64,000 bases of DNA from an uncultured Gammaproteobacteria bacterium (GTDB lineage: Bacteria > Patescibacteriota > Microgenomatia > Daviesbacterales > UBA10151). Where the stretch lies: the NCBI GenBank assembly GCA_964415615.1, contig CAYQAW010000002.1:1897-65896 (forward strand). The letters are read 5' to 3'. Made by a program: the position numbers and the translations under genes. A model generated the notes under the pieces. That model searched no databases. It saw only the letters and a program-made list of their open reading frames with translations, and was not told where the DNA came from. Shown piece after piece: positions 22,397 to 63,004 of this stretch (position 1 is the first letter of the stretch; each line of letters starts with the position of its first letter).

Positions 22397-22590
22397 TTAC
22401 TGGTGGAGATATTAAAAAACTAACTAAAAAATTTGCTACAAAGATAGATTTAGCAAGGTTAGAAATGAACCCCTCCCCGCTGCAAGCTGACGGGGTATTC
22501 TGGTTCAAAAATAAAAATGAATTTGGAGTTTGAAAGAGTAAGGGAAGAGATGGTAACTAAAGAACTCCTCGGTGTGTTAAAATATCTTTC

Positions 22591-25548: not shown

Positions 25549-26559
25549 ATGAGTATAATCAACCTAACGCTCATAATGTTAAGTTCAACCACTTCGTCCA
25601 AAAAGAAAATATCTTTACCTCTGTTTGACGAGTTTATGCTGCACCTGCAGATAAATAACTACTCTACTGAGACAATTTATAATTATGAACGGGATCTTCT
25701 CACATTTACCTATTTTCTTGAAAAAGAAATGCAAAAAGATTTTGATCAAATAGGTAAGTCAGATATAGAACATTATAAAGCTTATCTTCTGTCTACTGAC
25801 CGTAAAACTGCAATTTCAGAGGAGGATGCTTTAATTAAGTTGCAGAGTGGCTCTATGAATAGATTACTCTCCTCTCTTAGGAGTTATCTGAAGTTTCTTA
25901 TCTTTCAAGATTACAAGATTCCTATCCAGCCAGAACATATTAGAATGGTGAGAAAAGAAAATAAACACTACAAAGTAGCTGAGCTTCAAGAATTAACTTC
26001 CCTGATTGAGTCACCATCTGTTTTAGAAAAAGATCCTATTGTGGGGTCTCGGAACCGCGCTATGCTAGAAGTGCTTTTTGCAACAGGTATGAGAATTTCT
26101 GAACTTCTTTCCTTAAACAGAAGAGATATTGATCAAACAGGGAAGATTTTTATTATGGGTAAAGGCAAGAAGGAACGTTTTGTTTATCTTACAGAAAGAG
26201 CCAAGTCGTTGATTGACATGTATCTTTTACTGCGGAAGGATAATTTACCCGCACTATTTGTGCCTCAGAAGGGCAAAAGAATGGGAAAAAAAGATTGTCG
26301 TATCTCCCCTAACTATTTGCAGTTCAAGATTAAAAGTTATAGGGAAAAATTGGGAATTATTGTACCTACAAGCGCTCATTCACTTAGACATGGTTTTGCT
26401 ACATATTTGGCTGAGGAAGGGGCTTCCCCTGCTGCAATTCAGATTCTACTTGGTCATGAATCACTTAATACTACTACCAGATATGTAAATGCTTCAGATA
26501 AATTTGCTCAGGAAAGCCATAGGAAATATCACCCCTTATCTGAAGCAAATGACAAGTGA
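25549..26559 (+). CDS. Tyrosine site-specific recombinase (XerC/XerD/phage-integrase family), with an N-terminal core-binding (SAM-like) domain.
   Basis: The R..H..R...Y catalytic region is in the context HSLRHGFATYLAEEGASPAAIQILLGHESLNTTTRYV. A possible alternative start lies upstream. Confidence 0.8.
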   Translation: MSIINLTLIMLSSTTSSKKKISLPLFDEFMLHLQINNYSTETIYNYERDLLTFTYFLEKEMQKDFDQIGKSDIEHYKAYLLSTDRKTAISEEDALIKLQSGSMNRLLSSLRSYLKFLIFQDYKIPIQPEHIRMVRKENKHYKVAELQELTSLIESPSVLEKDPIVGSRNRAMLEVLFATGMRISELLSLNRRDIDQTGKIFIMGKGKKERFVYLTERAKSLIDMYLLLRKDNLPALFVPQKGKRMGKKDCRISPNYLQFKIKSYREKLGIIVPTSAHSLRHGFATYLAEEGASPAAIQILLGHESLNTTTRYVNASDKFAQESHRKYHPLSEANDK

Positions 26560-29798: not shown

Positions 29799-31643
29799 AT
29801 GAAAGAATTTTTAGATTTATTTAGAAACAAAAAACATCTGATTAGTCTTCTCCTTTTGGGGATATTAATTATAGCCCTCCCTTTGGGAATAAAATTAGTC
29901 AGCCAACAAAAGATTATTCAATCCAGAGCTACCAATCCTCCAATTGTATTTAAAGGAAATAATGTAGTTCAAAGAAACGGGCAATGGATAGCTATAAAGC
30001 CTCAAATTTCTTTAGAACTTACTTCTGCTTTAGGCGCTCCGGCATCCACGCCGGTTCCTGGTGCCAGTTCAAGCCCTTCTTCTAGTCCTAGCCTTGCTCC
30101 TAGCCCGAGTTCTAATCCAAATACTGGAGATGTATATTTCCTGTTGGATCCGATCCAAGCTTCTAAAACAACGGGAGATAGTTTTAATGTTACTCTTAAG
30201 CTCAATGCGTCAACTTTTAATATTTCAGCGCTAGATATAACGGTAAATTTTGATAAGGACAAGCTGGAGCTTATAAACTTTGTACCAGCCTCTGATAGCC
30301 ATATTGATTCAGTAATTAATGAAAAAAATAACCTGTCTGGTTATTTCCATTTCGTAGGAGTAAGATCACCAGCTACTAATCGGGTTTCCGGTGAAGTTAA
30401 CTTAGGTACTATTCAACTAAAAGCAAAAAATGTAGAAGGTATTGCTCAGATTACTTTTGGCAATACCCGGATTACATCTTCTGATAGAAGTGATCCTTTA
30501 ACAATTAGCAATAATCAAGGGGGTAGTTATTCTATTTTGAATATTGCTTCCGCTACTTCTTACCGGATTGCTGAAAATCCGACAGATTTAGCTGCGGCTG
30601 CTTGGGAAAATTATAATGCTGAACCAACTTTACGGGACTATGAATTTAGAGATAAAAGTCCGGGAGTAAAGACTATTTTTGTCGAATTTAAAGATTCTCA
30701 CCAAAAAACAGGTGGCTGCGGAGTAAATAACTCTCAGCCATGCCAAGTTCAAATTAGGCTTTTAGGTGATTTTGCGATCGGAAGTTGTGCTTTGAGTTTT
30801 GAAGGAAATAATGCTGTCTTGAATTTAAGAGGACAAAATTTCGGATTAACCAGGGGTGAGATCAAAAGCGGAGATACAGACTTGCAGGTTAGAGAATGGA
30901 AAGATAAGAATATTAAAGCAGTTTGGCAGGATGCGCCAGTTGGGCAAGTATTGCCGGTGTCTGTAACAAATACAGATGGCCAAGTTGCTGAAAGCCAATG
31001 TAGCGCTATCTCGCAGCTTTCAGTTGGGGCTAAATTTTTCTGTGGCCAGTCTTCTTCCAGCGCAGTTAATAATATTGATTTGAGTTTAGCTGGGGTATTT
31101 GAGGGAGGCACAAAGATCAAACAAAAAGTTAGCATTGCCACAGATGGTATTATCCAGGGATTAAATCAAAAATTAGAGGAAGGCAAGAATTATAAAGTAT
31201 CTTTAAAGGGGCCTAAATCGCTCCGCAGGACTGCAGAATTTACAGCAGGCAATGGCACTACCAATGTTACTGATTTTGTTTTACCTGTTGGAGATATTTT
31301 CCCGGTTACCAATGGAGATGGCGTAATTAATAATTTTGACCATTCAGAATTGGTCCGCCAGTGGATTATTTCTGTAGATGCTACTGGGAGATCAGCAGAT
31401 TTTAATGGTGACGGCAGGGTTAATTCCATTGACTGGGCTTGTATGAGGCATGATTTTGGCTCCTCAGATGATTCAGAACCAGCTGCTGGTGGTCCTGCAG
31501 CTGCTCCATCTGCCAGCCCAAGTCCTGTTGCTTCTGACGCTTCCGCTTCTAGTCCAAGTCCTAGTCCAAGTCCTTCTGCTACTCTAAATACTGGAGTTGG
31601 CAGTACAGCAGGCAGTACTGGAATTGGTAGTACAGCCCGTTAA
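29799..31643 (+). CDS. Large surface protein: N-terminal TM anchor, Ser/Pro linker, cohesin-like domain, central beta-rich region, tandem dockerin-like calcium-loop pair, Ser/Pro/Ala-rich tail.
   Basis: TM helix LISLLLLGILIIALPLGIKLV. Cohesin-like pattern FNVTLKLNASTFNISALDITVNFDKDKLELINF...VNLGTIQLKAKNVEGIAQITF. Dockerin-like pair VTNGDGVINNFDHSELVRQWI and DFNGDGRVNSIDWACMRHDF. Confidence 0.6.
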   Translation: MKEFLDLFRNKKHLISLLLLGILIIALPLGIKLVSQQKIIQSRATNPPIVFKGNNVVQRNGQWIAIKPQISLELTSALGAPASTPVPGASSSPSSSPSLAPSPSSNPNTGDVYFLLDPIQASKTTGDSFNVTLKLNASTFNISALDITVNFDKDKLELINFVPASDSHIDSVINEKNNLSGYFHFVGVRSPATNRVSGEVNLGTIQLKAKNVEGIAQITFGNTRITSSDRSDPLTISNNQGGSYSILNIASATSYRIAENPTDLAAAAWENYNAEPTLRDYEFRDKSPGVKTIFVEFKDSHQKTGGCGVNNSQPCQVQIRLLGDFAIGSCALSFEGNNAVLNLRGQNFGLTRGEIKSGDTDLQVREWKDKNIKAVWQDAPVGQVLPVSVTNTDGQVAESQCSAISQLSVGAKFFCGQSSSSAVNNIDLSLAGVFEGGTKIKQKVSIATDGIIQGLNQKLEEGKNYKVSLKGPKSLRRTAEFTAGNGTTNVTDFVLPVGDIFPVTNGDGVINNFDHSELVRQWIISVDATGRSADFNGDGRVNSIDWACMRHDFGSSDDSEPAAGGPAAAPSASPSPVASDASASSPSPSPSPSATLNTGVGSTAGSTGIGSTAR

Positions 31644-33043: not shown

Positions 33044-33925
33044 ATGACTCTTTCTGCTCTAATAACTGATTTTCTGGAATACCTTGAACTTGAACGTAAT
33101 GCTGCTCAGCCTACTATTAGAAATTATGATCATTATCTAAAACGCTTCGTAGAATTTGCAACAGATATAAACCCAGAAGATATAGATTTAAATTTAGTGA
33201 GAAAGTACAGGCTTTATTTATCAAGATGGATAGATCCTAAAACTCAAAAATCTTTAAAAAGAGTGACCCAAAATTATTTTATGATAGCTCTGAGGGCATT
33301 TTTAAGATATCTAGCCAAATCAGATATTTCAACTTTGTCTCCTGAAAAAGTTGAGCTTGGAGAAACTGATCCTAAGTCTTTAAAAGTTTTAGAGAAAGAC
33401 AAGCTTCAATTTCTGCTTGAGGCTCCTGATTGTACCACAAAAGATGGGTTGCGTGATAGAGCAATTCTGGAAACTTTATTTTCCACAGGTCTTAGGGTAT
33501 CTGAACTAGCTTCTTTAAATAGGGATACCATTAATTTACAAAGAAAGGAATTTGGGATTGTTGGAAAAGGAGGAAAAGAAAGAATGGTGTTTATTTCAGA
33601 TCCTGCAGCAGATTGTATAGAGATGTATTTAAACGCCCGTAAAGATACTTTTAAACCCCTTTTTATTAGATTCCAAGGTACTGTAAATCCTGAAAATGAA
33701 GGCGAGACAATGAGACTTACTCCCCGCTCGATTGAAAGGACTGTAGAAAAATATGTTAAGGCTTTGGGATTTTCTGTAAAAGCCACTCCGCACACCCTCC
33801 GCCACTGCTTTGCTACAGATTTACTCATAAATGGAGTTGATATCCGTTCAGTTCAAGAGATGCTGGGTCATTCTAATATCTCCACAACTCAAATTTACAC
33901 TCATGTTACCAATACACTAAAGTAA
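33044..33925 (+). CDS. Tyrosine recombinase, XerC/XerD-like.
   Basis: Catalytic region in the context HTLRHCFATDLLINGVDIRSVQEMLGHSNISTTQIYTHV. An N-terminal SAM-like core-binding domain. Confidence 0.8.
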   Translation: MTLSALITDFLEYLELERNAAQPTIRNYDHYLKRFVEFATDINPEDIDLNLVRKYRLYLSRWIDPKTQKSLKRVTQNYFMIALRAFLRYLAKSDISTLSPEKVELGETDPKSLKVLEKDKLQFLLEAPDCTTKDGLRDRAILETLFSTGLRVSELASLNRDTINLQRKEFGIVGKGGKERMVFISDPAADCIEMYLNARKDTFKPLFIRFQGTVNPENEGETMRLTPRSIERTVEKYVKALGFSVKATPHTLRHCFATDLLINGVDIRSVQEMLGHSNISTTQIYTHVTNTLK

Positions 33926-42235: not shown

Positions 42236-42798
42236 CGCCTCTCTCATTAATACAGGTTAATGCAGGGTTTGGCATAGGAGGCATAAGGAGAGAAACTGCA
42301 GGAGGTAATAATGGGTCCGGAAATCCTTGGGAAGAGAGTCCTGGAACAGATTGGGGAAAAACAGTCAAAGGACGTGTTTATGGAGGCTCCGGAAGACCAA
42401 CTGCGGATTATAGGAAAACGGGCACTCCACCATATTTTCCAATAACATGTGAGGAAATGGGTTGGGTGGAAAATGGTAATACTGATGCTGGAAGATTCAG
42501 AGTCTATCTGCAGTTTCATGGTATTGATCTTTCAGAGGCTAGGTTTTTGAAAAGCGGAGAGCATTATCTACGGCCTGCTGGATCTGACAGCGCTGTCTAT
42601 GCCAGGTTGAGAGGTGAGATTCTAGTAATTGCCACATTTGGAGATATCATAGAATGTCAACTGAGAGTTTTAGGACTTCAATCCTATGACAGGTCTTTAG
42701 GGAATTTCCATTTTGGTCAACTATTAAATTATGATCCCAGAAGAATGGGGATTTCGGTAAAGGGTAATTTAGTAGCTGTAGGGTACCCCCGGCCTTAA
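42202..42798 (+). CDS. Hypothetical Gly-rich protein (198 aa).
   Basis: Overlaps the end of the previous ORF. GC-richer than the surroundings. Confidence 0.35.
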   Translation: MGKGVSMPERLAPLSLIQVNAGFGIGGIRRETAGGNNGSGNPWEESPGTDWGKTVKGRVYGGSGRPTADYRKTGTPPYFPITCEEMGWVENGNTDAGRFRVYLQFHGIDLSEARFLKSGEHYLRPAGSDSAVYARLRGEILVIATFGDIIECQLRVLGLQSYDRSLGNFHFGQLLNYDPRRMGISVKGNLVAVGYPRP

Positions 42799-43377
42799 TT
42801 TTCTGGGCCAATTACGCCAAGCTTCCCTGTCTCTGTATAAAGGAAATTCTTCTTTTTCTACACAATGTAGTTTATTTGGATCAGTAATTAAATCTACAAA
42901 TACTTTTCCATCCAAATGATCAATTTCATGCTGAAAAATCCTTGCCACATAGCCAGAGTATTTTCTAAACTCCCGTTTACACCCCAAGGGTGTAAACTTA
43001 AATGATTGGATTTTGATAGAAGTTGATCTGGAGACTATTCCACAAACTTTGCCTGTGGAATAACATCCTTCATACCATTCCCCTTTTTCTTTAGACTTCC
43101 AAACTATTTTAGGGTTTATAAATATTTTTAAGTTTCCCACTTTTCCCTTACCATCTGCTGCTATATCTACTAAAATAATTCTTTTTAAAATTCCTATTTG
43201 TGGTGCAGCAAGCCCAACCATAATAGGTTTATTCTTCTCTTGCTGTTCTCCAAAAGCCACATTTAGCATTGCTTCTATAATCTTTTTAGTGTCTTTTGAA
43301 TTAATTTCTCCTTGAGGAATTTCTTGGGAGATTTGTGTTAAGCGTGGATCATTTGGTTTTAGAAAGTTTTTCCTCAT
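42769..43377 (-). CDS. def: Peptide deformylase.
   Basis: A conserved context GLAAPQIG. An EGCxS-type motif in the context EGCYS. HEIDHLDG. Confidence 0.85.
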   Translation of the reverse strand: MRKNFLKPNDPRLTQISQEIPQGEINSKDTKKIIEAMLNVAFGEQQEKNKPIMVGLAAPQIGILKRIILVDIAADGKGKVGNLKIFINPKIVWKSKEKGEWYEGCYSTGKVCGIVSRSTSIKIQSFKFTPLGCKREFRKYSGYVARIFQHEIDHLDGKVFVDLITDPNKLHCVEKEEFPLYRDREAWRNWPRKLRPGVPYSY

Positions 43378-53174: not shown

Positions 53175-54866
53175 ATGCCCACTTCAAATAGCACTCTTGA
53201 AGAAATTCTTTTCAATCAAGGCCTGATTACTTCTGATCAGCTTTCAGCAATAAAACTGGAAAGTATTAATTCTGGTCAACCTATTGAGAAAATCATTATT
53301 GCTCATAATTTAGTCCCAAGCGAAAAAATGATCCAAGCTAAAGCTCAGATTATTAATGTACCATTTATTAAACTTGAAGACAAAGCAATTGCAGCAGATG
53401 TACTAAATTTAATTCCAGAACCAGCGGCCCGCCGTTATCATATAATTCCATTTGATGAAAAAGAAGGAGAACTTTGGGTGGCAATGGCAGATCCTTTGGA
53501 TTTTCAGATTATCCAGTTTGTTGAAAAAAGGGCAGGACTTAGGGTTAAACCATTTCTGGCCCCAGGGCAAGATATTTTAAAAGCAATTTCTGATCAATAT
53601 TCTCAAAATTTAACCACGGATGTAACTTCAGCACTAAAAGAAGTTGAATCTGTTAAGCCTGAAGAAGAGGCGCAGGCTGGTCCAGAAATTTTACGCGAGG
53701 CGCCTGTTTCCAACATCATAAACCAGCTTTTAGAATATGCCATCAAATCCAGGGCGTCTGATATTCATATTGAGCCCCAGGATGATAGGACACGTGTTAG
53801 ATATAGAATTGATGGAATTTTACAGGAAAAAGTATTGCTTCCAAAAGGTGTGCATGATGCGCTTGTATCCAGAATTAAAATTCTCTCTGTTTTAAAGATT
53901 GATGAAAAACGTCTGCCTCAGGATGGCAGGTTCAGCTTTACCTACGGGCAAAATACTGTAGATATTAGGGTTTCGACAGTGCCTACTGTTTTTGGAGAAA
54001 AAGTGGTTTTAAGATTGTTGCCTAAATCATCAGGCGCGCCGTCACTGCTGGAATTGGGTTTAAGAGGGACTTCCCTTAAAAGTTTGGAAAGCCAGCTTTT
54101 GCGACCTCATGGAATTATTTTAATATGCGGTCCAACAGGTAGTGGTAAAACTACTACCCTGTACTCAGTTTTAAGTAAAATTTCCACCACAAAAGTTAAT
54201 ATTGTTACCATTGAAGATCCTGTGGAATATCAAATCTCAGGAGTTAATCAGGTTCAGGCTAATACTCAAATCGGTTTGACTTTTGCATCGGCTCTCCGGA
54301 GTTTTTTAAGGCAGGATCCGAATATTATTATGGTAGGTGAAATCAGAGATTCTGAGACTGCTGATTTAGCAATCCAGGCAGCTTTGACTGGGCACCAGGT
54401 TTTTTCTACGGTTCATACAAATTCAGCTGCCGGTGCTCCGCCCAGACTTTTGGATATGGGTGTTGAGCCATTCCTGTTAACTTCTGCTTTAAATGTGGTG
54501 GTTGGACAACGTGTTGTGCGTAAAATTTGTTCTTCCTGCAAAATAGAATTAGGTGTGCCACCTGAAGTGGTAGAGAATATTAAACTTGTTTTAGGCAAAT
54601 TTTTACCTGCATCTTCTTTGAAACTATTTAAAGGAAAAGGCTGCCAGAAATGCGCTGAGACAGGTTATTTAGGAAGGGTTGGTATTTTTGAAGTACTTGT
54701 TATTTCTGAAAAAATAGCTAAGTTAATTCTAGAGCATGCATCTTCCGGCAAGATTGAAGAAGAAGCTGTTTCAGAGGGAATGATTACCATGAAGCAGGAT
54801 GGATATTTAAAGGTTTTAGAAGGTGTGACTACGATGGAAGAAGTGCTGAGAGTAGCGCAGGATTAA
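53175..54866 (+). CDS. pilB: Type IV pilus assembly ATPase PilB (GspE family).
   Basis: N-terminal GspE_N-like domain. Walker A context LICGPTGSGKTTTLY. Tetracysteine motif CSSCK...CQKC. Confidence 0.85.
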   Translation: MPTSNSTLEEILFNQGLITSDQLSAIKLESINSGQPIEKIIIAHNLVPSEKMIQAKAQIINVPFIKLEDKAIAADVLNLIPEPAARRYHIIPFDEKEGELWVAMADPLDFQIIQFVEKRAGLRVKPFLAPGQDILKAISDQYSQNLTTDVTSALKEVESVKPEEEAQAGPEILREAPVSNIINQLLEYAIKSRASDIHIEPQDDRTRVRYRIDGILQEKVLLPKGVHDALVSRIKILSVLKIDEKRLPQDGRFSFTYGQNTVDIRVSTVPTVFGEKVVLRLLPKSSGAPSLLELGLRGTSLKSLESQLLRPHGIILICGPTGSGKTTTLYSVLSKISTTKVNIVTIEDPVEYQISGVNQVQANTQIGLTFASALRSFLRQDPNIIMVGEIRDSETADLAIQAALTGHQVFSTVHTNSAAGAPPRLLDMGVEPFLLTSALNVVVGQRVVRKICSSCKIELGVPPEVVENIKLVLGKFLPASSLKLFKGKGCQKCAETGYLGRVGIFEVLVISEKIAKLILEHASSGKIEEEAVSEGMITMKQDGYLKVLEGVTTMEEVLRVAQD

Positions 54867-54870
54867 TATT

Positions 54871-55923
54871 ATGAATATTACTCAACTTTTAGATTTGACT
54901 GTACAAAAAAATGCTTCAGATTTACATCTGGTTGTAGGGTTTTCTCCTACCATCCGCATCCATGGAGATTTAATACCGGTAACTGGAGAAGAGATTTTAA
55001 CTGAACAACAAATAGAAGCAGTTATTAAAGAGATTACCAATGCTTACCAATTAAACAAATTTAATACTACCTGGGAGTTGGATTTTTCTTTTGATTTTTT
55101 GGGTAAAGCCAGGTTTAGAGGAAATCTATATAAACAAAAAGGTACACCAGCAGCAGATTTTAGGTTAATTCCAAACAAGATTCCTTTGCTGGATGATCTG
55201 GGATTACCACCTGTTTTAAAAAGACTGACAACTTTGCGCCAGGGTTTTATTTTAATTACTGGGCCTACAGGTCATGGTAAGTCTACTACCTTGGCTTCGT
55301 TGATTAACGGGATCAATATTAACCGCGCGGTGAATATTTTAACTATTGAAGATCCTATTGAATATGGTTATCCAAAAGGTAAATCATTAATTTCTCAACG
55401 TGAGCTGGAAAATGACACCCATTCCTGGTCAGCTTCTATGCGGGCTGCGTTGCGTGAAGATCCGGATGTGGTTTTAGTGGGAGAGATGAGAGATTTAGAG
55501 ACCATTTCTTCCGCTATTACAATTGCGGAAACTGGACATTTAGTTTTTGCCACATTGCATACTAATTCTGCAGCGCAAAGTATTGATAGAATTATTGATG
55601 TGTTTCCCCAAAGTCAGCAGCCTCAGATTCGATTGCAACTGGCTGCAACTCTGGAAGCTGTTATATCTCAACGGCTGGTGCCAACTATGATTCCAGGCAG
55701 AATAGCTGTTGCTGAAATATTATTGGTAACGCCAGCAGTGAGGAATATCATCAGAGAGGCTAAAACATATTTAATAGATAATACAATTGAGACATCCAGC
55801 GAATTAGGTATGCAGATTTTTGAAAAATCTTTGGCAGATGCTGTAAAGGCAGGAAAAATTTCTCAGGATATAGCACTAAAGTTTGCTTTAAGACCAGAGT
55901 TGCTAAGTAAACTACTAAGGTAA
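54871..55923 (+). CDS. pilT: Twitching-motility retraction ATPase PilT.
   Basis: Walker A context ILITGPTGHGKSTT. PilT-specific context GHLVFATLHTNSAAQSIDRI. Confidence 0.85.
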   Translation: MNITQLLDLTVQKNASDLHLVVGFSPTIRIHGDLIPVTGEEILTEQQIEAVIKEITNAYQLNKFNTTWELDFSFDFLGKARFRGNLYKQKGTPAADFRLIPNKIPLLDDLGLPPVLKRLTTLRQGFILITGPTGHGKSTTLASLINGININRAVNILTIEDPIEYGYPKGKSLISQRELENDTHSWSASMRAALREDPDVVLVGEMRDLETISSAITIAETGHLVFATLHTNSAAQSIDRIIDVFPQSQQPQIRLQLAATLEAVISQRLVPTMIPGRIAVAEILLVTPAVRNIIREAKTYLIDNTIETSSELGMQIFEKSLADAVKAGKISQDIALKFALRPELLSKLLR

Positions 55924-57125
55924 TGGCTGAATTCCTATACAAGGCTAAGGATTTGCAAGGAAATGATCATAATGGCAGCGTGGAGTCTCCTGATGCTCAT
56001 TCTGCAGTGGCGGTGATACGTAAAAAAAACCTGATTGTGATTTCTTTGACTCCTAAAAATTCCGGGACAAACAATTTTTTGGATAGGTTTTTAAATAAGG
56101 TCAGCTTTTCGGATTTAGTTATTATCACGAGACAGCTGGCAACAATGATTTCAAGTGGTCTGGTTTTGTCAGAAGCCATAGATATTTTGGAAGAGCAACA
56201 AACAAATAAGATCCTAAAAAATGCTTTAGCAGATATTTCCCAGGATGTTAAAGGAGGACTGACTTTAGCGCAGGCCTTGGGTCAGTACCCGCACATTTTC
56301 CCGCATCTTTATGTAAATTTGGTTAAAAGTGGTGAAACTTCAGGTAAGCTCGACAATGTGCTTTTGCAAATGGCTGATGGATTGGAAAAAGATAGGGAAT
56401 TTCAGTCAAAAATTAGAGGCGCAATGATTTACCCTGTCTTGGTTTTATCGATGATGGTTGTTGTCATGATAATAATGATGGTTTTTGTTATCCCCAAGCT
56501 GGTAAATTTATATACCCAATCAACCATAGAACTGCCATTGCCAACAAAAATATTGATCGGCACATCTACCCTGTTTACAAATTACTGGTGGGTTTTAGTA
56601 ATTATTACAGTAGGAGCTATTGTTGGGATAAACCGCTGGAAAAAAACACCTGAAGGTAATCTCTTTTTGGGTAAATTGATTTTAAGAATTCCCATTGTCG
56701 GAAAAATTGTAACTAATGTAACCTTAACTAATTTTAACCGTACTTTTGGGCTTTTAACATCTGCAGGTATCCCTTTACTTGAGTCAATTGGTATTGTTTC
56801 TGATCTGACAGATAATCCTGTTTTTAAAATCGCGCTTAAAGACGCTTACAATGGAGTTGAAAAGGGTTTGCCATTTTCATCACTTCTTTCTGCAACAGTT
56901 TTTCCTAAAATTGTCAGCCAGATGATTAAAGTAGGTGAGGAAACAGGCAAGGTAGATGAAATATTTTTAAAGCTGGCTGATTTTTTTGAATCAGAATCTG
57001 ATCACCTGGTAAAAAATTTGACAGTGGCAATTGAACCAATAGTATTGGTTATTTTAGGAATAGGAGTTGCTTTCTTAGTAATCTCTATAATTTTACCTAT
57101 ATACAAGTTGACAACTAGTTTTTAA
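55923..57125 (+). CDS. pilC: Type IV pilus inner-membrane platform protein PilC (GspF family).
   Basis: Two GspF repeats with three TM helices. 400 aa. Confidence 0.85.
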   Translation: MAEFLYKAKDLQGNDHNGSVESPDAHSAVAVIRKKNLIVISLTPKNSGTNNFLDRFLNKVSFSDLVIITRQLATMISSGLVLSEAIDILEEQQTNKILKNALADISQDVKGGLTLAQALGQYPHIFPHLYVNLVKSGETSGKLDNVLLQMADGLEKDREFQSKIRGAMIYPVLVLSMMVVVMIIMMVFVIPKLVNLYTQSTIELPLPTKILIGTSTLFTNYWWVLVIITVGAIVGINRWKKTPEGNLFLGKLILRIPIVGKIVTNVTLTNFNRTFGLLTSAGIPLLESIGIVSDLTDNPVFKIALKDAYNGVEKGLPFSSLLSATVFPKIVSQMIKVGEETGKVDEIFLKLADFFESESDHLVKNLTVAIEPIVLVILGIGVAFLVISIILPIYKLTTSF

Positions 57126-57149: not shown

Positions 57150-57722
57150 GTGAGAAAATTGAAAAAATCTGCTCAATCCCGATTTAATCGGGATCAAGTT
57201 CATAAAGGTTTTACCTTAGTTGAACTTTTGGTTGTTATTGCAATTATTGCCATTTTGGCAGCAGTTGTAGTCCTGATAATTAATCCATTAGAACTCACCC
57301 GTAGAGGTAGGGATGCAGCAAGACTTAGTGATCTTGCAAATTTGCAGCAAGCTATTAATGTAGCTGTTCAAGAAGCAACTGCTTCTTCTGTTGCTATATT
57401 GTGTAATTCTGACAGCGCAACATCATGCAATGGTTCAAGTAATGTTGGTTCCCGTTCCTCAGATGGTACAGGCTGGGTGAAAGTTAATCTATCTGCTCAG
57501 AAGAGTGTTTCTGTGCCAACTTTACCTGTTGATCCACTCAATAATGCAGCAAATCACTATACTTATTGTTCAGATGGTGATGCCTGGGAAATTAATACTG
57601 CTTTGGAATCAACCCAGCAATCTGGCAAGATGTTAACAGATGGTGGAGAAGATGACGCTGTTTACGAGGTTGGTTCTAAGTTGAGTCTTATTAAATCGTC
57701 TGGGGGGACTTGTACATATTAA
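57150..57722 (+). CDS. Prepilin-type pilin (N-terminal cleavage/methylation domain).
   Basis: A context KGFTLVELLVVIAIIAILAAV (G/FTLxE class III signal). C-terminal Cys pair. Confidence 0.75.
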   Translation: MRKLKKSAQSRFNRDQVHKGFTLVELLVVIAIIAILAAVVVLIINPLELTRRGRDAARLSDLANLQQAINVAVQEATASSVAILCNSDSATSCNGSSNVGSRSSDGTGWVKVNLSAQKSVSVPTLPVDPLNNAANHYTYCSDGDAWEINTALESTQQSGKMLTDGGEDDAVYEVGSKLSLIKSSGGTCTY

Positions 57723-57795: not shown

Positions 57796-58704
57796 ATGAT
57801 AATAATAGGTTTTGTTTTTGGAATGGTTTTAGGGAGTTTTGCGAAAGCGCTAGCTGATAGAAGTTTAAGTAAAAAGTCTTTTTGGGGAAGGTCGTATTGT
57901 CTGGATTGTAAACACAAGCTGGCATGGTGCGACCTTTTTCCTATTTTCTCCTACATAATCCTTCAAGGTAAATGCAGGTATTGCAGAAAAAAAATTCCTC
58001 TGGAATACCCAATTGCTGAAATTATTCTGGGAATATTGGTGGGATTTCTCTTTTGGCAAAGCTTCAAAAATTTTCAATTTACAATTTTCAATTTTCATTC
58101 AATTTTCAATTTACAATTTTCAATTTTCATTTTTGAATTAGTATATAAAACTTTCTTTATATTAATCTTGGCTGTTTTATTTATAACTGATTTAAAAAAG
58201 ATGTTTATTCCAGACAGGATTATAATTCCTTCTATAATTATTGGAGTCATTGGGATTACAGCTGTTACCATATATAAGATAGGTCATCTTTATTATTATC
58301 TTTCTCAAAGTGCTGTAGGCAGATTATTACTCCCTCCCCATAGTGAATATTTTCAAAGGCATGCTTTGATTACTGCTCAGCCATTTTTGCTATCTATTTT
58401 AATGGGACTAGCAATTGGAGGTTTTTTCTTAAGTTTAATAATTATTACCAGAGGTAAAGGTATGGGAGGTGGAGATGTTAAGTTAGGAGCCTTTATAGGG
58501 CTGATGTTGGGCTTCCCTAATGCTTTAGCTGCTTTGGTGCTGTCATTTTTATCAGGAGCTGTATTTTCAGTAGGTCTGATACTCCTGGGTAAAAAGCATT
58601 TTGGTCAAACAATCCCCTTTGGTCCATTTTTGGTATTAGGAAGTTTAATTGTGCTTTATTGGGGCAATCAGATTATGGACTGGTATTTAAAACTTGGGTC
58701 TTGA
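57796..58704 (+). CDS. pilD: Prepilin peptidase PilD (A24 family).
   Basis: N-terminal zinc-binding CLDC...CRYC. Two catalytic Asp-containing loops. About 8 TM helices. Contains an in-frame CAATTTTCAATTT-type tandem repeat (58075-58135). Confidence 0.85.
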   Translation: MIIIGFVFGMVLGSFAKALADRSLSKKSFWGRSYCLDCKHKLAWCDLFPIFSYIILQGKCRYCRKKIPLEYPIAEIILGILVGFLFWQSFKNFQFTIFNFHSIFNLQFSIFIFELVYKTFFILILAVLFITDLKKMFIPDRIIIPSIIIGVIGITAVTIYKIGHLYYYLSQSAVGRLLLPPHSEYFQRHALITAQPFLLSILMGLAIGGFFLSLIIITRGKGMGGGDVKLGAFIGLMLGFPNALAALVLSFLSGAVFSVGLILLGKKHFGQTIPFGPFLVLGSLIVLYWGNQIMDWYLKLGS

Positions 58705-58782
58705 TCAATCGTCTCAATATGATACGATTAAGGTATATGAGTGAGACGAATTTCTTAGTAATATTTTTTTGAGGTAACCTCC

Positions 58783-58804
58783 GATTACACCCTTGGGGTG
58801 TAAA
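58783..58804. repeat. REP-like hairpin ACACCC-TTGG-GGTGT (left flank of the IS200-like gene).
   Basis: Perfect 6-bp stem with a 4-nt loop, seen directly. Confidence 0.6.
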
Positions 58805-58810
58805 GATGAG

Positions 58811-59458
58811 TTAACTATATTCCTCTACCAGTTGGTGTTTTATAATTTCCAGTTCTCTGCCATAATCTGCCCGATCAGCAACGAATTTCTGATAATCTTT
58901 TGGTAATTTGAACTGATTTAGAATAATTTCTTTAGCACAGATTTTTTGAGTACTTAGCCCAATATATTCCAGATAAGATGACCAGCGGTAATCTTCTAGG
59001 TCTTTTACTAAACCTGAAACTAAGGGATTTAGATGGATATATCTGCTAAGATGTAATAACTGCTCATTACTTTCCACCAATACTGATTTGAACTCTCCTT
59101 GCAGAAGAGGCCCAACTCTACCATGCTTAATGTTGAAATACTTAGTATAACTATTGCTTAATTTACTGATAAATTCAGTTATGCCACCATCAATTAATTG
59201 TTTAATCAGGAAATGGAAATGGTTTGGCATTAAACAAAAGCAGATAATCTCGACTATCTGCTTGCTTGTGTCTAATAGATTATTAGTTGGCGCAAACAGG
59301 GAAAATCTGGGTTTTGGCCCAAGTATTTTGTAATAAAGCATGGTTTTTAAAAATCTTTGATAGTGATATGAGTTTTTAAAGATATTCATTTTGTCCACAC
59401 CCCTGTTGAAAATATGGTAATACTCCCCATTAACTAATGGATGAATTCTTGAAGGCAT
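58811..59458 (-). mobile_element. Second IS200/IS605-like Y1 (RAYT-type) transposase gene, flanked by REP-like hairpins.
   Basis: HUH motif in the context PNHFHFLIKQ. Paralog of 21674..22345. The 22-mer CGATTACACCCTTGGGGTGTAA sits at 58783-58804 and again at 59497-59518, followed by three tandem GTAAGTATGGGGT copies. Confidence 0.7.
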
Positions 59459-59496
59459 ATATTTAGTAGATCACATCCTAGCTAGAATGTAAACCA

Positions 59497-59548
59497 ACGA
59501 TTACACCCTTGGGGTGTAAGTATGGGGTGTAAGTATGGGGTGTAAGTA
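59497..59548. repeat. REP-like hairpin ACACCC-TTGG-GGTGT plus three tandem GTAAGTATGGGGT half-copies (right flank).
   Basis: Seen directly. Confidence 0.6.
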
Positions 59549-59563
59549 CAACTTAGTTAAATC

Positions 59564-59757
59564 CCCTTTGGTCCATTTTTGGTACTAGGAAGTTTAATTG
59601 TGCTTTATTTTTGAACCAGAATACCCCGTCAGTAGGCTTTGGGGATGGAAGGTTTAAAAAGAATTCACCCGAAGGGATACTCCGCAGTTTACTGCGGAGT
59701 AGTTCATTGGGGCAATCAGATTATGGACTGGTATTTAAAACTTGGGTCTTGATCAAT
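59564..59757 (+). repeat. Duplicated 3' end of pilD (copy 2 of 58612-58709), interrupted by a 97-bp insertion (59611-59707) that carries the CTCCGCAG-TTTA-CTGCGGAG hairpin.
   Basis: 59564-59610 and 59708-59757 are nearly identical to 58612-58658 and 58659-58709. The ORF-track ORF 59611..59829 over this region is spurious. Confidence 0.75.
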
Positions 59758-60175
59758 TTTTGTCTAAATATTTCAAAATTTCAGCTCCAAATTGACAAAG
59801 ATCTTTTAAATCTTCCTTGTAATCTTTGAAAAGAAGCTTGAAATCAAAATCATCATAACCATGAACTACCCTGTTTCTAAAGTCTGCTGCCTGACCCATT
59901 TTTAATGATAATTCTTTATCGATGATTCCTTTCTCTCCCAAAAAAATAAAAGCATCTTTGGCTGTTTCTTTCCGGGGTGCGTTTGATGAAGCAATAATAT
60001 GGGTAGCAATATCAATAGAGGTTTCTACAGCTTGCTGGAGGCGGAAGACTATCAAGTCATGAATATCAACGTTTTCTATAAACTCACCAGCGGTAAAATC
60101 CATATTTTCTATCTTATGGATTTGTTCACTTAAAAAATCTAACTTTTTTGCCACTAAATCTTTACTAATTAACAT
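59753..60175 (-). CDS. HEPN-domain toxin, HepT (DUF86)-like.
   Basis: R-x4-H-x-Y motif in the context RNRVVHGY. Overlaps the upstream nucleotidyltransferase gene. Confidence 0.7.
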   Translation of the reverse strand: MLISKDLVAKKLDFLSEQIHKIENMDFTAGEFIENVDIHDLIVFRLQQAVETSIDIATHIIASSNAPRKETAKDAFIFLGEKGIIDKELSLKMGQAADFRNRVVHGYDDFDFKLLFKDYKEDLKDLCQFGAEILKYLDKN

Positions 60176-60626
60176 AAGAGAATTTATCTTTTAAGTAAGA
60201 ATAATAGATTTTTCTGAGATGAGCAGTATCATAATAATTACCTAAAGTGAATGCCTCAAAAGCAATCTTTTCTTTTTCTGATCTTTGATAAATACATTGT
60301 CCTGTACTGACGATTTGAAACAGAAACAAAGGAGAAGAATTTTTATCAACTACGGATAAATCTAGATCCTTAGGAAAATTAATATCTGATATCAAAGTAT
60401 GAATATATTCATAGTCAATTTTGCTAGCATTATCTACAATTATGGCTAAATCAAAATCACTATCGGTTTTTGCTCTGCCACTAATGACTGATCCTAAGAC
60501 ATAAGCCAGTTTTATCTTAGGTTCTTTGGATAATGAGGTGTCTATTTGTGAGATCATTGTTGTGTCTAACATAAGATAAGTATAACATTTGCTTAGGTAG
60601 TTGATCAATCGATAATAACAAACCAT
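60165..60626 (-). CDS. Minimal nucleotidyltransferase (MntA-like) antitoxin.
   Basis: Pattern G-S-x9-13-D-x-D in the context GSVISGRAKTDSDFDLAI. Confidence 0.65.
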   Translation of the reverse strand: MVCYYRLINYLSKCYTYLMLDTTMISQIDTSLSKEPKIKLAYVLGSVISGRAKTDSDFDLAIIVDNASKIDYEYIHTLISDINFPKDLDLSVVDKNSSPLFLFQIVSTGQCIYQRSEKEKIAFEAFTLGNYYDTAHLRKIYYSYLKDKFSYVN

Positions 60627-60713
60627 CCCCTTTGGCCCATAGCTAGTACTAGGTAGTTTAATAATGCTTTTCTGGGGAAATCAAATTATTGATTGGTATT
60701 TAAGACTTGGTCA
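60627..60713 (+). repeat. Third, more diverged copy (about 75% identity) of the pilD 3' end.
   Basis: CCCCTTTGGCCCAT...TTGATTGGTATTTAAGACTTGGTCAATGAG aligns with 58612-58709. Confidence 0.6.
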
Positions 60714-60770
60714 ATGAGTAGTTGACAAATAATAGAGAAAAAGTTGTATTATGGAATATAGATACTGCCT

Positions 60771-61247
60771 ATGAAAAAAACTGCTGGATTTACCTTAGTT
60801 GAGCTTTTAGTTGTTGTGGCTATTATTGGCCTTTTGTCTGCTATAGGTATGGTTGTTTTTGCAGATGCTCAAGCAAAAGGCAGGGATGCTAAAAGAAGAG
60901 CTGATATTGATTCCATAGCTAAAGCTCTGGAGATACACAAAACAGATAATGGTGGGTATCAAGCTTTGGATGCAGCCTGGTTAGGATCTTCTACAGGCCT
61001 TCCTACCACTGATCCAAAAACTAATCCCTACTGTATTTCTACTAATGCTACTGCAAATCCCAGTAATACTGCTGCTTGGACTGTTTGTTCAAGTATTAGT
61101 GGTGGAGGGAGTAGTGCTTCTTGGGTTGCTGTAGCTGGTGGTCAACCCACTGTTTCTTCGGGTACTGTTAACTCTTGGAGAGTTTGTGCATTTTTGGAAA
61201 ATCCCGGTGGTACTGCTCAACCTTATTGTAGATCTAATCTTCAATAA
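60771..61247 (+). CDS. Prepilin-type pilin.
   Basis: N-terminal context MKKTAGFTLVELLVVVAIIGLLSAIG. Cys-rich C-terminus. Confidence 0.75.
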   Translation: MKKTAGFTLVELLVVVAIIGLLSAIGMVVFADAQAKGRDAKRRADIDSIAKALEIHKTDNGGYQALDAAWLGSSTGLPTTDPKTNPYCISTNATANPSNTAAWTVCSSISGGGSSASWVAVAGGQPTVSSGTVNSWRVCAFLENPGGTAQPYCRSNLQ

Positions 61248-61345
61248 ACTGAAACCTAGGTATTGACAAGGCCTTTTAATTATGAAAATAATAGAACGTA
61301 GACTATTTTTTACAAAAAGAGATTAACAAGATAAAAGATTAAAAC

Positions 61346-61900
61346 ATGAAACGTTTACTGCCCACGTTACTAAAGCTACGGGTAACTTCCTACAAATTAC
61401 TTCATGCACGCAAAAAAGGCTTCACATTGATTGAGCTGATGGTAGTGATATCCATAATAGCAATTCTGTCACTAGTATCCTTCAGTCTTTTTACTGGAGC
61501 CCAAGGTTCTGCAAGGGATTCCAGAAGAGCTATTGAAGTTGATGCGCTTGCGAAAAATATTGAATCGACAAAAGATCCTACTGCTAAAACGTACTCTTAT
61601 ACATCTGATCTTTTTAATGCTGATTATAAGACTCTTCCGACGGATCCTAGTTTAAGTACTGGTTATTGTTTTAAGACTGCGAGTAAGGCCATTTCTAATC
61701 CAACAAATTGGGTTCCTACTTCTACTAAGGCATGTCCCCAGGATGTTTGCGCAGGTAATCCTTCTGTATGTAATGATAGTACATGGGTGGAATTAAAAAA
61801 TGCTTTTACAGCTCCATCCGCTGATAAATACTTTATGGTATGTGCAGCATCTGAAAGAGGCTCAACCGCGATTTGCCAGGGTCCATTCCTCACCAAATAA
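61346..61900 (+). CDS. Prepilin-type pilin (long leader).
   Basis: A context KGFTLIELMVVISIIAIL. C-terminal Cys residues. Confidence 0.7.
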   Translation: MKRLLPTLLKLRVTSYKLLHARKKGFTLIELMVVISIIAILSLVSFSLFTGAQGSARDSRRAIEVDALAKNIESTKDPTAKTYSYTSDLFNADYKTLPTDPSLSTGYCFKTASKAISNPTNWVPTSTKACPQDVCAGNPSVCNDSTWVELKNAFTAPSADKYFMVCAASERGSTAICQGPFLTK

Positions 61901-61920
61901 GTTTATAATCACTAGCAGAA

Positions 61921-61947
61921 AACCCCGCCATCTTTTATGGCGGGGAT
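61921..61947. terminator. Hairpin CCCCGCCAT-CTTTT-ATGGCGGGG between convergent genes; a T-tract follows on the minus strand.
   Basis: Seen directly. Confidence 0.5.
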
Positions 61948-62114: not shown

Positions 62115-62747
62115 TCAAATTTTTAATTTGCTTTTGGCAAGAGCAATTGTTTGAGTTTGAAAAAATTTCTTTACCTCTTTCCAGGAAATAGGAATTAACA
62201 TTTTAGGCATGTCATCTATTTCCGCTTCAGCAAAATAGTCCATACTCCTAAGAATTATATAAAAGTGACTTTCTAAAACCCCGTACTTCTGGTCATAGAA
62301 TTTAAGCATCTGTTCTAAAGAAAATTCCTTTGCTAAAAAAAACAGATCAACAAAATCTCTCCTGGTTCCCCTATCTTCTAAGGCATGAATTTTCATAGCA
62401 GCAATATCTTCTTTATCTAATACTTGAACCCCTTCAAAATTAACGGTTTTTTTAATCAGGGGATATTGATAATAAAATAAACTGAATTTTGTTTTTCCGA
62501 TATTACCCCAGACTGTCCTCCAGGCTATGCCATCCTCCTTAAATTCAGGGATCTTTTTTAGGTTTTGAGAAAGCACTTGTTCATCAAACTTTTCCTTGGT
62601 AAAGAAATCCAAATCTACGGAAATTCTATGACCCAGATGCAATGCCAGCGCAGTCCCACCTGCCAGATAGCTTTTTTTAACAATACTTATTTTAGAAACT
62701 AACTTGACAGCCCGAAGGGTATCCGGGAGTAAGGTTTTTGTAAACAT
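62115..62747 (-). CDS. AbiEii/AbiGii-family nucleotidyltransferase (type IV toxin-antitoxin / abortive-infection toxin).
   Basis: Nucleotidyltransferase-fold GG motif and D-x-D in the context AGGTALALHLGHRISVDLDFF. Confidence 0.6.
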   Translation of the reverse strand: MFTKTLLPDTLRAVKLVSKISIVKKSYLAGGTALALHLGHRISVDLDFFTKEKFDEQVLSQNLKKIPEFKEDGIAWRTVWGNIGKTKFSLFYYQYPLIKKTVNFEGVQVLDKEDIAAMKIHALEDRGTRRDFVDLFFLAKEFSLEQMLKFYDQKYGVLESHFYIILRSMDYFAEAEIDDMPKMLIPISWKEVKKFFQTQTIALAKSKLKI

Positions 62748-63004
62748 GGTACCTTTTTGTGGTCTATTTTTAAAATGTCGGCCCAGAAATTGGCTGTTTT
62801 GCGCGAAATGTCACGAGTCATAAGCAATAGCTGTTTGATTTCTTCTTTAGTAAAATTTCGTTCTAACCATTTTAATGCTTTAGTATCGCCCCGGTCTAAA
62901 ACACGTTTTAAGATAAAAGTTCTGGATTTTTCTAATGTCATAGAATCAAAATCCACATCCCAAAAATATTTTTTTAAAAAATTTGGCAGCTTTTGTATTT
63001 TCAC
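62699..63004 (-). CDS. Small protein upstream of, and overlapping, the AbiEii gene; probable cognate antitoxin.
   Basis: 101 aa. Position and overlap only; the fold is not recognised. Confidence 0.4.
   Translation of the reverse strand: MKIQKLPNFLKKYFWDVDFDSMTLEKSRTFILKRVLDRGDTKALKWLERNFTKEEIKQLLLMTRDISRKTANFWADILKIDHKKVPCLQKPYSRIPFGLSS

Follow-up and report, generated by a model that had tools for sequence, protein, structure and literature searches.

Two kinds of described system are among those closest to the locus discussed here. ICE, IME and CIME accrete in tandem at the 3' ends of tRNA or protein genes (PMC5704250; see also Pavlovic 2004 and Bellanger 2011 on this accretion, as cited in PMC5704250). 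The minimal mobile elements of Neisseria are variable cassettes that lie between conserved genes and are exchanged by transformation and homologous recombination (defined in PMC3787668, with citation of Saunders & Snyder 2002 and Snyder 2007). The window, by which we mean the whole 64-kb stretch of DNA that was analysed, includes a type IV pilus operon, and between pilD and the first downstream pilin gene it has small modules separated by copies of the pilD 3' end. We conclude that this recombination hotspot of Daviesbacteria is real, though of a fairly ordinary sort, and that nothing in it points to an integrase-driven element.

The pilD gene (57796-58704; features are on the forward strand unless stated otherwise) is intact and encodes a prepilin peptidase of 302 aa (Pfam A24_N_bact 87 bits, Peptidase_A24 44 bits). 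Its live 3' end, encoding IPFGPF...WYLKLGS with the TGA stop at 58702-58704, makes up copy 1 together with 5 nt past the stop (58612-58709). An earlier note on this DNA had claimed three copies of this end, and they are present as claimed, with small corrections to the coordinates. Copy 2 is a fossil in two halves, 59561-59609 with one mismatch to copy 1 and 59709-59757, and agrees with copy 1 in 97 of 98 positions. An insertion does split it, but of 99 nt and not 97 bp, and the copy starts at 59561 and not 59564. Copy 3, the oldest fossil, spans 60619-60717 and not 60627-60713. Over 92 nt it is 82% identical to copy 1, and in the final 55 nt 75%; an in-frame stop (TAG, 60640-60642) precedes its own TGA (60715-60717). 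Both downstream copies are dead, displaced pilD ends, as had been proposed. Degenerate patterns for each half of the tail match only at the three copies in the 64 kb (shuffles expect 0), and Smith-Waterman comparison of the pilD-tail copies with shuffled tails gave z = 29.

The source is a metagenome-assembled genome, in which repeats can cause misjoins, and a chimeric or collapsed contig could in principle have produced the repeats, as the earlier note had warned. However two Logan unitigs (SRR4343430) match the window at 100% from 58680 to 59631 and from 59728 to 61928, and rebuild the junctions from copy 1 through spacer, RAYT gene and copy 2 into the MITE-like insert, and from copy 2 through HepT to the pilin gene, so that the copies are real. 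Both unitigs stop exactly in a 30-nt stretch common to copies 1 and 2, as is expected of a k=31 graph. The closest relative (L081), from a different project, has the same order, and the copies are not identical to one another. We give an assembly artefact next to no chance.

Copy 1 is followed by a unique spacer (58710-58775) with a terminator-like inverted repeat, TCGTCTCA...TGAGACGA, and a T-run; the arms of the repeat run from 58709 to 58749, the first beginning on the final base of copy 1. The terminator scan made no call on this inverted repeat, the spacer has no counterpart in any fetched relative, and an Rfam search of 57.7-61.3 kb for known structured RNA gave just two matches, at chance level.

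The gene between copies 1 and 2 (58811-59458, reverse strand) is intact and encodes a RAYT-like Y1 (HUH) transposase of 215 aa (Pfam Y1_Tnp PF01797, 26.2 bits, cut-off 23) with an HFH motif within PNHFHFL. NCBIfam REP_Tyr_transpos (NF047646) is its best and only match in that collection, but at 51.3 bits the protein does not pass this curated family model (cut-off 80). A REP-like hairpin, TTACACCCTTGGGGTGTAA, lies beside the stop codon (58785-58803; 0.04 expected by chance), and on the other side there is a second (59501-59519) followed by two 13-nt half-hairpin repeats that extend to 59549. The two 19-nt hairpins are identical and in direct orientation; the 64 kb has three in all, the third exact copy being at 42977, inside def. 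The same hairpin borders Y1 homologues in six other loci (L004, L007, L081, L106, L151 and L176). The gene had been described as IS200-like, and a Y1 HUH domain with subterminal hairpins at both ends is indeed present between copies 1 and 2; however it behaves as a single-copy gene resembling RAYT genes and not as a multicopy insertion sequence. There is one copy in the 64 kb plus one 36%-identical paralogue, most of the homologue clusters listed are on one contig with a few on up to 32, and from these data there is no indication of multiple identical copies or of recent transposition. The likeness to RAYT and IS200/IS605 elements lies in a Y1 HUH protein of ~215 aa, the same short hairpin on both sides, a seemingly single copy (one in the 64 kb) and what may be solo hairpins elsewhere, whereas the score of 51 against 80 bits, the direct orientation of the hairpins, their number of three in 64 kb and a subfamily tied to the post-pilD locus set it apart. 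In six genomes RAYT identity follows pilD identity, a pattern that fits vertical descent, and the tail relics beside RAYT are progressively shorter in different lineages; RAYT would seem to have been resident here for a long time.

Copy 2 is split by a MITE-like insert of 99 nt with two hairpins (59610-59708; DNA fold z = -4.5), and a 46-nt relative with the same termini is found at 22470-22515 on the reverse strand. Between copies 2 and 3 a HEPN/MNT toxin-antitoxin pair had been recognised, and the two genes, both on the reverse strand, pass the NCBIfam models: HepT, the toxin gene (59753-60175; HepT_toxin 100 bits, cut-off 60, also matched in Pfam), and MntA, the antitoxin gene (60165-60572; MntA_antitoxin 69 bits, cut-off 60). 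Their ORFs overlap by 11 nt, and as adjacent genes passing curated models they can be assigned to type VII toxin-antitoxin systems. The TGA of copy 2 (59750-59752) abuts the HepT stop, TCA (59753-59755). A promoter-like site for MntA/HepT (TTGATC, 18 nt, TATACT; 60579-60608, reverse strand), which is a consensus match only, holds the palindrome TTGATCAA upstream of copy 3. We considered TTGATCAA / TTGATCAAT(CG) as an att core and rejected it, as at copies 1 and 2 it is the pilD TGA abutting the HepT TCA, that is a pair of convergent stops, while beside copy 3 it forms the -35-like box of the putative MntA promoter.

The comparison set consists of 157 related loci with pilD orthologues. A pilin gene follows pilD directly in 98 of them, which are thus empty, and 36 have varied small cargo: RAYT-like Y1 transposase, HepT/MntA, AbiEii with or without DUF6922, HicAB, 23S_rRNA_IVP and Bro-N. 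This distribution, with different cargo at one site in different relatives, supports the proposal of a recurrent insertion hotspot at the pilD terminus. At the 36 occupied sites the cargo is 2.8 kb or less and is wholly accounted for by identified genes. Statistically supported pilD-tail fossils occur at six loci, and most occupied sites have no statistically detectable fossil, so that a long duplication is not required. The duplications flanking cargo range from 14-15 nt (L012) through ~57 nt (L004 and L014) to 93-108 nt (window, L081, L005 and L088), and the left boundaries of the fossils relative to the stop are -108, -99, -98, -97, -93 and -57/-59. The starting points of four long fossils all fall in an interval of 15 nt (-93 to -108), a clustering that fits recombination and erosion only if they arose from one or a few ancestral duplications. 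At other toxin-antitoxin insertions no gene-end duplicates were found, either in four pilin clusters (window, L081, L021 and L005) or elsewhere in the window. For variants within the species an exact-protein look-up of PilD was empty, and the best relative that a metagenome scan gave has a PilD with 78% identity at the amino-acid level.

The nature of the junction with the pilin gene may account for the duplicated tails. The first downstream pilin gene (60771-61247; Pfam N_methyl) is preceded by a promoter-like site (TTGACA ... TATTAT; 60722-60752) that is contiguous with copy 3 and, as read from the sequence, has the same layout across relatives. Of 80 distinct empty junctions, 30 have a TTGACA whose first base precedes the TGA stop by 1 nt, so in the commonest layout the pilD stop would lie inside the pilin -35 box, and the last pilD codons would double as the conserved sequence upstream of it. 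The promoter is a consensus match, and the overlap is a likely constraint. Where the -35 box lies 6 nt or more beyond the live stop (55 distinct junctions), the 10 nt ahead of the box match AAATTGGGGT at a mean of 6.0/10, against 6.4/10 for overlap junctions and 2.9/10 for control positions. The ~10 nt upstream of the -35 box thus appear to stay conserved even when non-coding, and a surviving insertion would have to keep a tail copy on both sides; given the overlap of stop and -35 box, DNA would be tolerated between pilD and the pilin gene on no other terms.

Our best explanation, to which we give about an even chance, is that a compact, dual-use pilD-pilin junction has turned into a recombination hotspot for small selfish modules. 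The upstream tail copy would complete pilD, and the downstream copy would stay with the promoter and decay from its 5' side. The starting point would be an existing tail-cargo-tail allele, which homologous recombination would then carry into other genomes. New cargo would stack beside pilD because the donor fossil pairs with the resident live tail, which becomes the next fossil. Recombination between tail copies would also homogenise the copies within a genome and reshuffle arrays. We infer RecA-type recombination as the agent and DNA uptake as the route, and both are assumed for these organisms. The ~95-nt fossils are far longer than the ~10-nt promoter-proximal element needs, and this counts against the explanation.

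Comparison of the window with L081 and L005 bears on several of these steps. The order RAYT, fossil, HepT/MntA, fossil is common to the window and L081, and the array of the window was inherited from an ancestor of both. Identity between the two is 86.6% over pilC-pilD, 95.5% for RAYT and 90.9% for the HepT/MntA block including its fossil flanks, and copy 3 is the orthologue of a truncated fossil (C) in L081. Copy 2 however is only ~78% identical to its orthologue, fossil B of L081. With the same array order in the closest relative and a 22% difference between orthologous fossils, it follows that gene conversion has replaced copy 2 by copy 1 sequence not long ago; the MITE-like element hit it afterwards. 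The near-identity of copies 1 and 2 is thus no mark of a recent integration.

L081 has the RAYT-fossil-HepT/MntA block in common with the window, and upstream of this block it has an AbiE module, whose position supports the view that the newest cargo sits nearest pilD. The pilD bodies of L005 and L081 are 65-73% identical, but identity is 89-99% over a segment that begins ~170 nt upstream of the stop and reaches into the 5' part of the AbiE module, and after a dip to 77-84% near the DUF6922/AbiEii junction it is 92-98% across AbiEii. Both have the odd tail YLHLGQ*, and in L081 the last ~20 nt of pilD and the AbiE module are L005-like. It appears from these sequences that a block of pilD tail plus AbiE has moved between distant genomes. 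The suggestion that each module brings a replacement pilD end stands for at least one case, the AbiE of L081 with its L005-like tail. Fossil B of L081 equals the L005 fossil for ~60 nt and is of the copy-2 type of the window at its end, and is thus apparently a recombinant mosaic. The phylogeny of the tail was rejected as a test for element-borne ends: outside the L081/L005 case its shortness and its high conservation (81-87% for almost any pair) keep it from being decisive.

The earlier note had compared the locus to the targeting of tRNA genes by integrative elements, and the modules could be decayed, cis-mobilizable (CIME-like) remnants that targeted the pilD 3' end using a recombinase encoded elsewhere and built up in tandem, like the elements at the 3' ends of tRNA genes or of fda. 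Direct repeats of the gene 3' end do flank each module, the newest cargo is nearest the gene, pilD is intact in every array, as it would be if the element restores the 3' end of its target, and the AbiE of L081 came with a replacement tail in one high-identity block shared with L005. The close starts of four fossils are also in favour, and the accretion model is well established for ICE, IME and CIME tandems, which resemble this locus as well in having decayed elements without mobility genes. However no recombinase was found in or beside the cargo in the window or in any of the 36 occupied sites, where the small cargo consists entirely of identified genes. The only tyrosine recombinases in the window are two Xer-like Phage_integrase ORFs at a distance of more than 25 kb (25549-26559, at 25.5 kb, and 33044-33925, at 33 kb). 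The boundaries of the copies vary and have no common att-like core, TTGATCAA being otherwise explained, and the search of IMG/VR viral contigs for a phage or plasmid donor gave 0 matches for the degenerate tail pattern and 0 for the hairpin. The modules here are ~0.8-1 kb, with neither integrase nor fixed att core, and the repeats are mosaics with variable boundaries, for which homologous rather than site-specific recombination would be the process. With the tail + AbiE block transfer added to these points the analogy does not hold, and we regard site-specific integration as improbable.

A role for the Y1 enzyme itself is very doubtful in our view. It could have generated the duplications by taking adjacent pilD sequence along with the element through a pseudo-end inside pilD, or by nicks at the hairpins leading to local rearrangement, with the toxin-antitoxin modules as hitch-hikers. 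The RAYT subfamily (identity at least 78%) is recurrent directly 3' of pilD (window, L081, L004, L007, L106/L107, L151, L161, L176 and L177), the tail relics are 0-41 nt from its right hairpin, and L014 and L021 retain a solo hairpin beside a fossil. The short relics after RAYT in L007, L106 and L151 are plausible by eye but non-significant against shuffles, and are suggestive only. Against such a role, members of the IS200/IS605 family transpose as single-stranded DNA and make no target duplication, the AbiE-linked fossils of L005 and L088 have no RAYT or hairpin, distant RAYT homologues elsewhere (L167 and L171) have hairpins but no obvious duplicate of a neighbouring gene in the flanks inspected, and RAYT identity tracks that of the host. 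The fossil boundaries also have no common target tetranucleotide of the IS608 type, although this was judged by eye and is weak evidence.

It is also conceivable, though we think it unlikely, that duplication came first. Replication slippage would give a small tandem copy of the pilD end that uncouples the stop from the -35 box, leaving a neutral gap into which elements insert later by their own mechanisms, and arrays would come from repeated rounds; this departs from our best explanation only in the origin of the copies. Several cargo-free junctions (L033, L032, L038 and L126 among them) have a live tail, then a short tail relic and then TTGACA, as would be expected, and the spread of duplication lengths from 14 to 108 nt also fits. 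However these tandem relics could equally be scars of cargo loss, and no cargo-free tandem duplication of ~100 nt was seen. Furthermore the gap would make a new duplication needless, but in both the window and L081 a fossil separates RAYT from HepT/MntA.

Under the preferred explanation, that of a dual-use junction open to homologous recombination, there is a parallel with minimal mobile elements. As in Neisseria, different small cassettes without mobility genes lie between the same two genes and would be transferred with their flanks, and the identity jump between L005 and L081 and the mosaic fossil point to recombination in the flank. In contrast, duplicated gene ends do not feature in descriptions of minimal mobile elements. 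Here the overlap with a promoter would be the reason for the duplication of the flank, and cassettes are stacked in arrays.

The locus also has some likeness to integron arrays, in which small self-contained or promoterless cassettes, often toxin-antitoxin, lie downstream of a fixed point with a repeat after each of them. It differs in having no IntI, attI or attC structure and in taking its repeat from a housekeeping gene, and with integron-integrase models both Xer-like ORFs score far below the cut-offs. We tentatively suggest that the duplicated gene end may be a portable, integrase-free attachment site, giving CPR bacteria a RecA-only, integron-like array of toxin-antitoxin and transposase modules, in which ~100-nt tail copies would let host recombination capture, stack, exchange and delete cassettes.

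Homology-facilitated illegitimate recombination, reportedly described by de Vries & Wackernagel in 2002 for naturally transformable bacteria, usually deletes recipient DNA and does not duplicate it. If such a process had homology to pilD as its anchor on one side and an illegitimate join on the other, the first tail-cargo-tail alleles might arise near the anchor.

The locus would be an example of how a very compact genome can tolerate selfish DNA at the overlap of a coding end with a promoter: the shared sequence is present twice, and each copy has its own task. The type IV pilus locus of Daviesbacteria emerges as a hub for toxin-antitoxin and defence-like modules. If stacking truly needs no dedicated recombinase, there would be more ways for small modules to spread where classical mobile elements are few. 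In annotation of genomes, gene-end relics of this kind could mark past insertions, and could also be a source of false "pilD fragment" calls. Look-ups of HepT and RAYT gave only short unitigs of the same arrangement; a protein identical to the RAYT of the window is present in a Logan assembly, and a 135-aa MntA gene is called in a Logan contig (L174).

In the window pilD, encoding a prepilin peptidase, is intact (57796-58704, + strand; Pfam A24_N_bact and Peptidase_A24) and sits in a type IV pilus operon with pilB-like (53175-54866), pilT-like (54871-55923) and pilC-like (55923-57125) genes and an upstream pilin gene (57150-57722). The presence of three copies of its 3' end is confirmed. Copy 1, the live one, is the last 98 nt or so of the gene (58612-58709); copy 2 is in two halves (59561-59609 and 59709-59757) split by a 99-nt insert and has 97 of 98 positions in common with copy 1; copy 3 (60619-60717) has 82% identity to copy 1 across 92 nt. 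A degenerate pattern for each tail half matches at these three copies only in the whole window, where shuffles expect 0, and in local alignment against shuffled tails the extra copies have z = 29. Between copies 1 and 2 there is an intact Y1_Tnp gene (58811-59458, - strand) with a 19-nt hairpin at each side, the two being identical and directly oriented, and between copies 2 and 3 there are HepT and MntA genes, both passing the NCBIfam equivalog cut-offs. Two independent Logan unitigs (SRR4343430) match window positions 58680-59631 and 59728-61928 at 100%, both stopping exactly within 30 nt common to copies 1 and 2. They reproduce the junctions, and the order is therefore not an assembly artefact.

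The PilD relatives are from Candidatus Daviesbacteria (Microgenomates, CPR), the best match being 73% identical in amino acids among genomes and 78% among metagenomes, the latter in L081, the closest of the related loci that we fetched (all with L numbers). The pilD end could be located in 157 of these loci, some of them redundant. In 98 the pilD stop is followed within 120 nt by the start of a pilin gene, in 36 there is something between pilD and pilin, and the other 23 are mostly from distant phyla or on short contigs. What lies at the pilD end varies from genome to genome: a RAYT-like gene (REP-associated tyrosine transposase; the window, L081, L004, L007, L106/L107, L151, L161, L176 and L177), HepT/MntA (the window, L081 and L012), AbiEii with or without DUF6922 (L003, L005, L081 and L088), HicAB (L013), a 23S_rRNA_IVP four-helix-bundle gene (L025 by Pfam, L015 and L084 by N-terminal sequence similarity to L025), a Bro-N protein (L026) or small GC-rich MITE-like pieces (L010 and L056). 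The suggestion that the pilD terminus is a recurrent insertion hotspot was thus correct.

Some related arrangements may be mentioned here. The HepT/MntA-like pair after pilD in L012 (6870-7760) is just 41-42% identical to that of the window, with the TGA|TCA stops abutting as they do there; it may represent an orthologous insertion of some age whose fossil, as we call a displaced, dead tail copy, has eroded. A solo RAYT hairpin, a tail relic with heavy deletions and HepT/MntA (88% and 77% amino-acid identity to the window, respectively) form a block in L021 (2190-3110) and L109 that sits past the first pilin gene instead of right behind pilD; one of the two, the block or the pilin gene, has been relocated as a unit. 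The second half of the L088 fossil (7890-7950) holds a remnant similar to the inverted repeat at the right of the 23S_rRNA_IVP cassette, which suggests that this site had earlier cargo, since deleted. Between two pilin genes of the window (62115-63004, - strand) there is another toxin-antitoxin pair, DUF6922 and AbiEii, and pairs of AbiE type are dispersed over pilin clusters in many relatives (L005, L013, L021, L081, L110 and L129). Within pilD there is an in-frame 32-nt tandem repeat (58069-58131, + strand; AATTTTCAATTTACAATTTTCAATTTTCATT, two copies) encoding a low-complexity loop, and relatives have similar yet different repeats at this position. In L015, L025, L084, L096 and L099 the 23S_rRNA_IVP cassettes of the pilD-pilin junction lie between runs of a similar kind ("caattt/ttcaaaa").

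Extra tail copies are statistically supported in six loci, with two fossils each in the window (z = 29) and L081 (z = 21; fossils B and C), and one each in L005 (z = 29), L088 (z = 16), L014 (z = 13.5) and L004 (z = 8). The downstream copies were rightly read as displaced gene ends, and copy 3 has an in-frame TAG. Most other occupied sites have no extra tail copy at the level of these six, and shorter duplications are found in L012, where the HepT/MntA-like pair lies within a 14-15-nt direct repeat, ACTTGGGGTATTGA, present at both sides, and in L176, L177 and L106, which have degenerate tail relics of 30-40 nt past the RAYT hairpin. Measured from the stop, the left ends of the long fossils are at -108 (L005), -99 (window copy 3), -98 (L081 fossil B), -97 (L088), -93 (window copy 2) and -57/-59 (L004, L014), with no single crossover core among them.

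The earlier note had likened the site to tRNA-targeting integrative elements, and in this respect it was wrong on the likely machinery, as we find neither a recombinase nor an att-like core at the copy boundaries. The only tyrosine recombinases in the window are two Xer-like genes far from the site (25549-26559 and 33044-33925), and the cargo intervals, at most 2.8 kb, are filled by identified genes; an integrase acting at the pilD end in trans is an unlikely alternative. The palindrome TTGATCAA was considered as an att core and rejected: it is formed at copies 1 and 2 by the pilD TGA and the opposite-strand HepT stop that abuts it, and the one upstream of copy 3 is the -35-like hexamer of a predicted MntA/HepT promoter-like site. 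Neither the degenerate tail pattern nor the hairpin has a match in IMG/VR. In the known model an element integrates site-specifically and decays to a CIME, and the next accretes at the att site containing the gene end (PMC5704250); the pilD site shares the outward pattern, but the defining parts were not found here.

The pilD end has another property. In 30 of 80 distinct empty junctions TTGACA starts 1 base before the pilD TGA, and the stop is therefore part of the -35 box of the pilin promoter, as predicted by consensus match. The consensus of the 10 nt that precede the -35 is AAATTGGGGT, which codes in these genomes for the final ...KLGS of PilD. Matches to it average 6.4 of 10 in overlap junctions and 6.0 in the 55 distinct junctions where the live stop precedes the -35 by 6 nt or more (7 or more matches in 22 of the 55), with 2.9 at control positions (7 or more in 0.3%). 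On this sequence evidence the pilD end and the upstream edge of the predicted pilin promoter are one and the same DNA, which is kept with the predicted promoter wherever pilD and pilin are apart. This double role would explain why insertions are flanked by duplicated pilD of very different lengths, and why the predicted promoter always adjoins the last fossil downstream, as it does window copy 3 and the L014 and L088 fossils, which end ...GGGGYCTTGACA. It would also explain why toxin-antitoxin insertions elsewhere in pilin clusters have no gene-end duplicates.

There are several signs of recombination between tail copies. The pilD bodies of L005 and L081 have just 65-73% identity. Identity is 89-99% over a stretch that begins some 170 nt ahead of the stop and reaches into the 5' portion of the AbiE module, falls to 77-84% near the DUF6922/AbiEii junction and returns to 92-98% across AbiEii. 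The two share an unusual tail, ...DWYLHLGQ*, and the intergenic sequence after it, and L081 diverges from the window, its close relative, about 20 nt before the stop. As the high-identity block spans tail and AbiE, the module came with a replacement tail, so that for this module in L081 an incoming element did bring a gene end, as proposed. Fossil B of L081 is near perfect to the L005 fossil over about 60 nt, including the distinctive ...WGDKLMEW..., and its last 20 nt or so, contiguous with HepT, are of window copy-2 type; the switch marks a recombination joint inside the fossil. The order RAYT, fossil, HepT/MntA, fossil is common to the window and L081, with identities of 95.5% for RAYT, 90.9% for the HepT/MntA block including fossil flanks and 86.6% for pilC-pilD, and by eye the stretch from right hairpin to fossil start seems homologous (about 11 of 17 matches). 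The array is therefore older than their split. Yet the identity of copy 2 to copy 1 is 99%, and to its L081 orthologue just 78% or so. This is most simply read as a recent gene conversion that involved copies 1 and 2 in the lineage of the window, after which a MITE-like element inserted into copy 2. That copies 1 and 2 are nearly identical is thus not a mark of recent integration.

The block transfer, the mosaic fossil and the gene conversion fit ordinary recombination that uses the tail copies as its homology. A tail-cargo-fossil allele that came in would pair leftward with pilD and rightward with the resident live tail, which would become the next fossil, and new cargo could stack beside pilD without a dedicated enzyme. 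For the first duplication one candidate is a small tandem duplication uncoupling the stop from the -35 before cargo arrives, which is supported by cargo-free junctions with a live tail and then a short relic (for example L033 and L038); the other candidate is anchor-dependent illegitimate recombination. Four long fossils cluster at left ends of -93 to -108, a pattern that would be explained only by descent from a single ancestral event or from a few. Among known systems the nearest are accretion of the CIME type at the 3' ends of genes (PMC5704250) and the minimal mobile elements of Neisseria (PMC3787668), and the pilD site is a variant mixing features of both, tied to the overlapping stop codon and predicted promoter.

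The element called IS200-like does encode a Y1 HUH-type transposase (Pfam, 26 bits; best NCBIfam match REP-associated tyrosine transposase, 51 bits, under the cut-off of 80), but its behaviour is unlike that of an active multicopy IS. The family is very large in Microgenomates (over 7,800 matches, most clusters listed being on a single contig). Homologues at 74% and 67% identity lie elsewhere, between pheT and a PBP gene and beside tRNA genes, with the same hairpin motif at both sides of the gene, in L171 inside direct repeats of about 35 nt. All homologues of at least 78% identity with context examined are directly after pilD, and in six genomes RAYT nucleotide identity tracks that of pilD (96/80, 85/69 and 75/64%, for example). 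This fits an old vertically inherited resident, lost in many lineages. The tail relics by the right hairpin are about 93, 57, 40, 30 and possibly 20 nt in different lineages, which looks like erosion of one old fossil from the 5' side; L014 and L021 have kept a solo hairpin alone.

An exact copy of the 19-nt hairpin is present at 42977-42995 (- strand), in frame in a peptide deformylase gene (ORF 42769-43377, - strand; residues 128-134, FTPLGCK), with a chance expectation of 0.04 in the window. A second RAYT-like Y1 gene (21674-22345, + strand; 223 aa), 36% identical to that beside pilD, is flanked at about 21610 and about 22377 by another hairpin, which is CACCCCTAGGGTG-like. The insert in copy 2 (59610-59708, + strand; 99 nt) and a 46-nt element (22470-22515, - strand) are MITE-like; both begin TTTGAACCAGAATACCCCGTCAG, finish GTTCATT and are preceded by TTTATT. 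The 99-nt copy has a two-hairpin fold (z = -4.5), and the element has no Rfam match. Finally, at 27258-29600 and 30079-31599 large ORFs, which probably encode surface proteins, have within them long perfect or near-perfect repeats (252, 156 and 133 nt) and 12-nt PT-type repeats.
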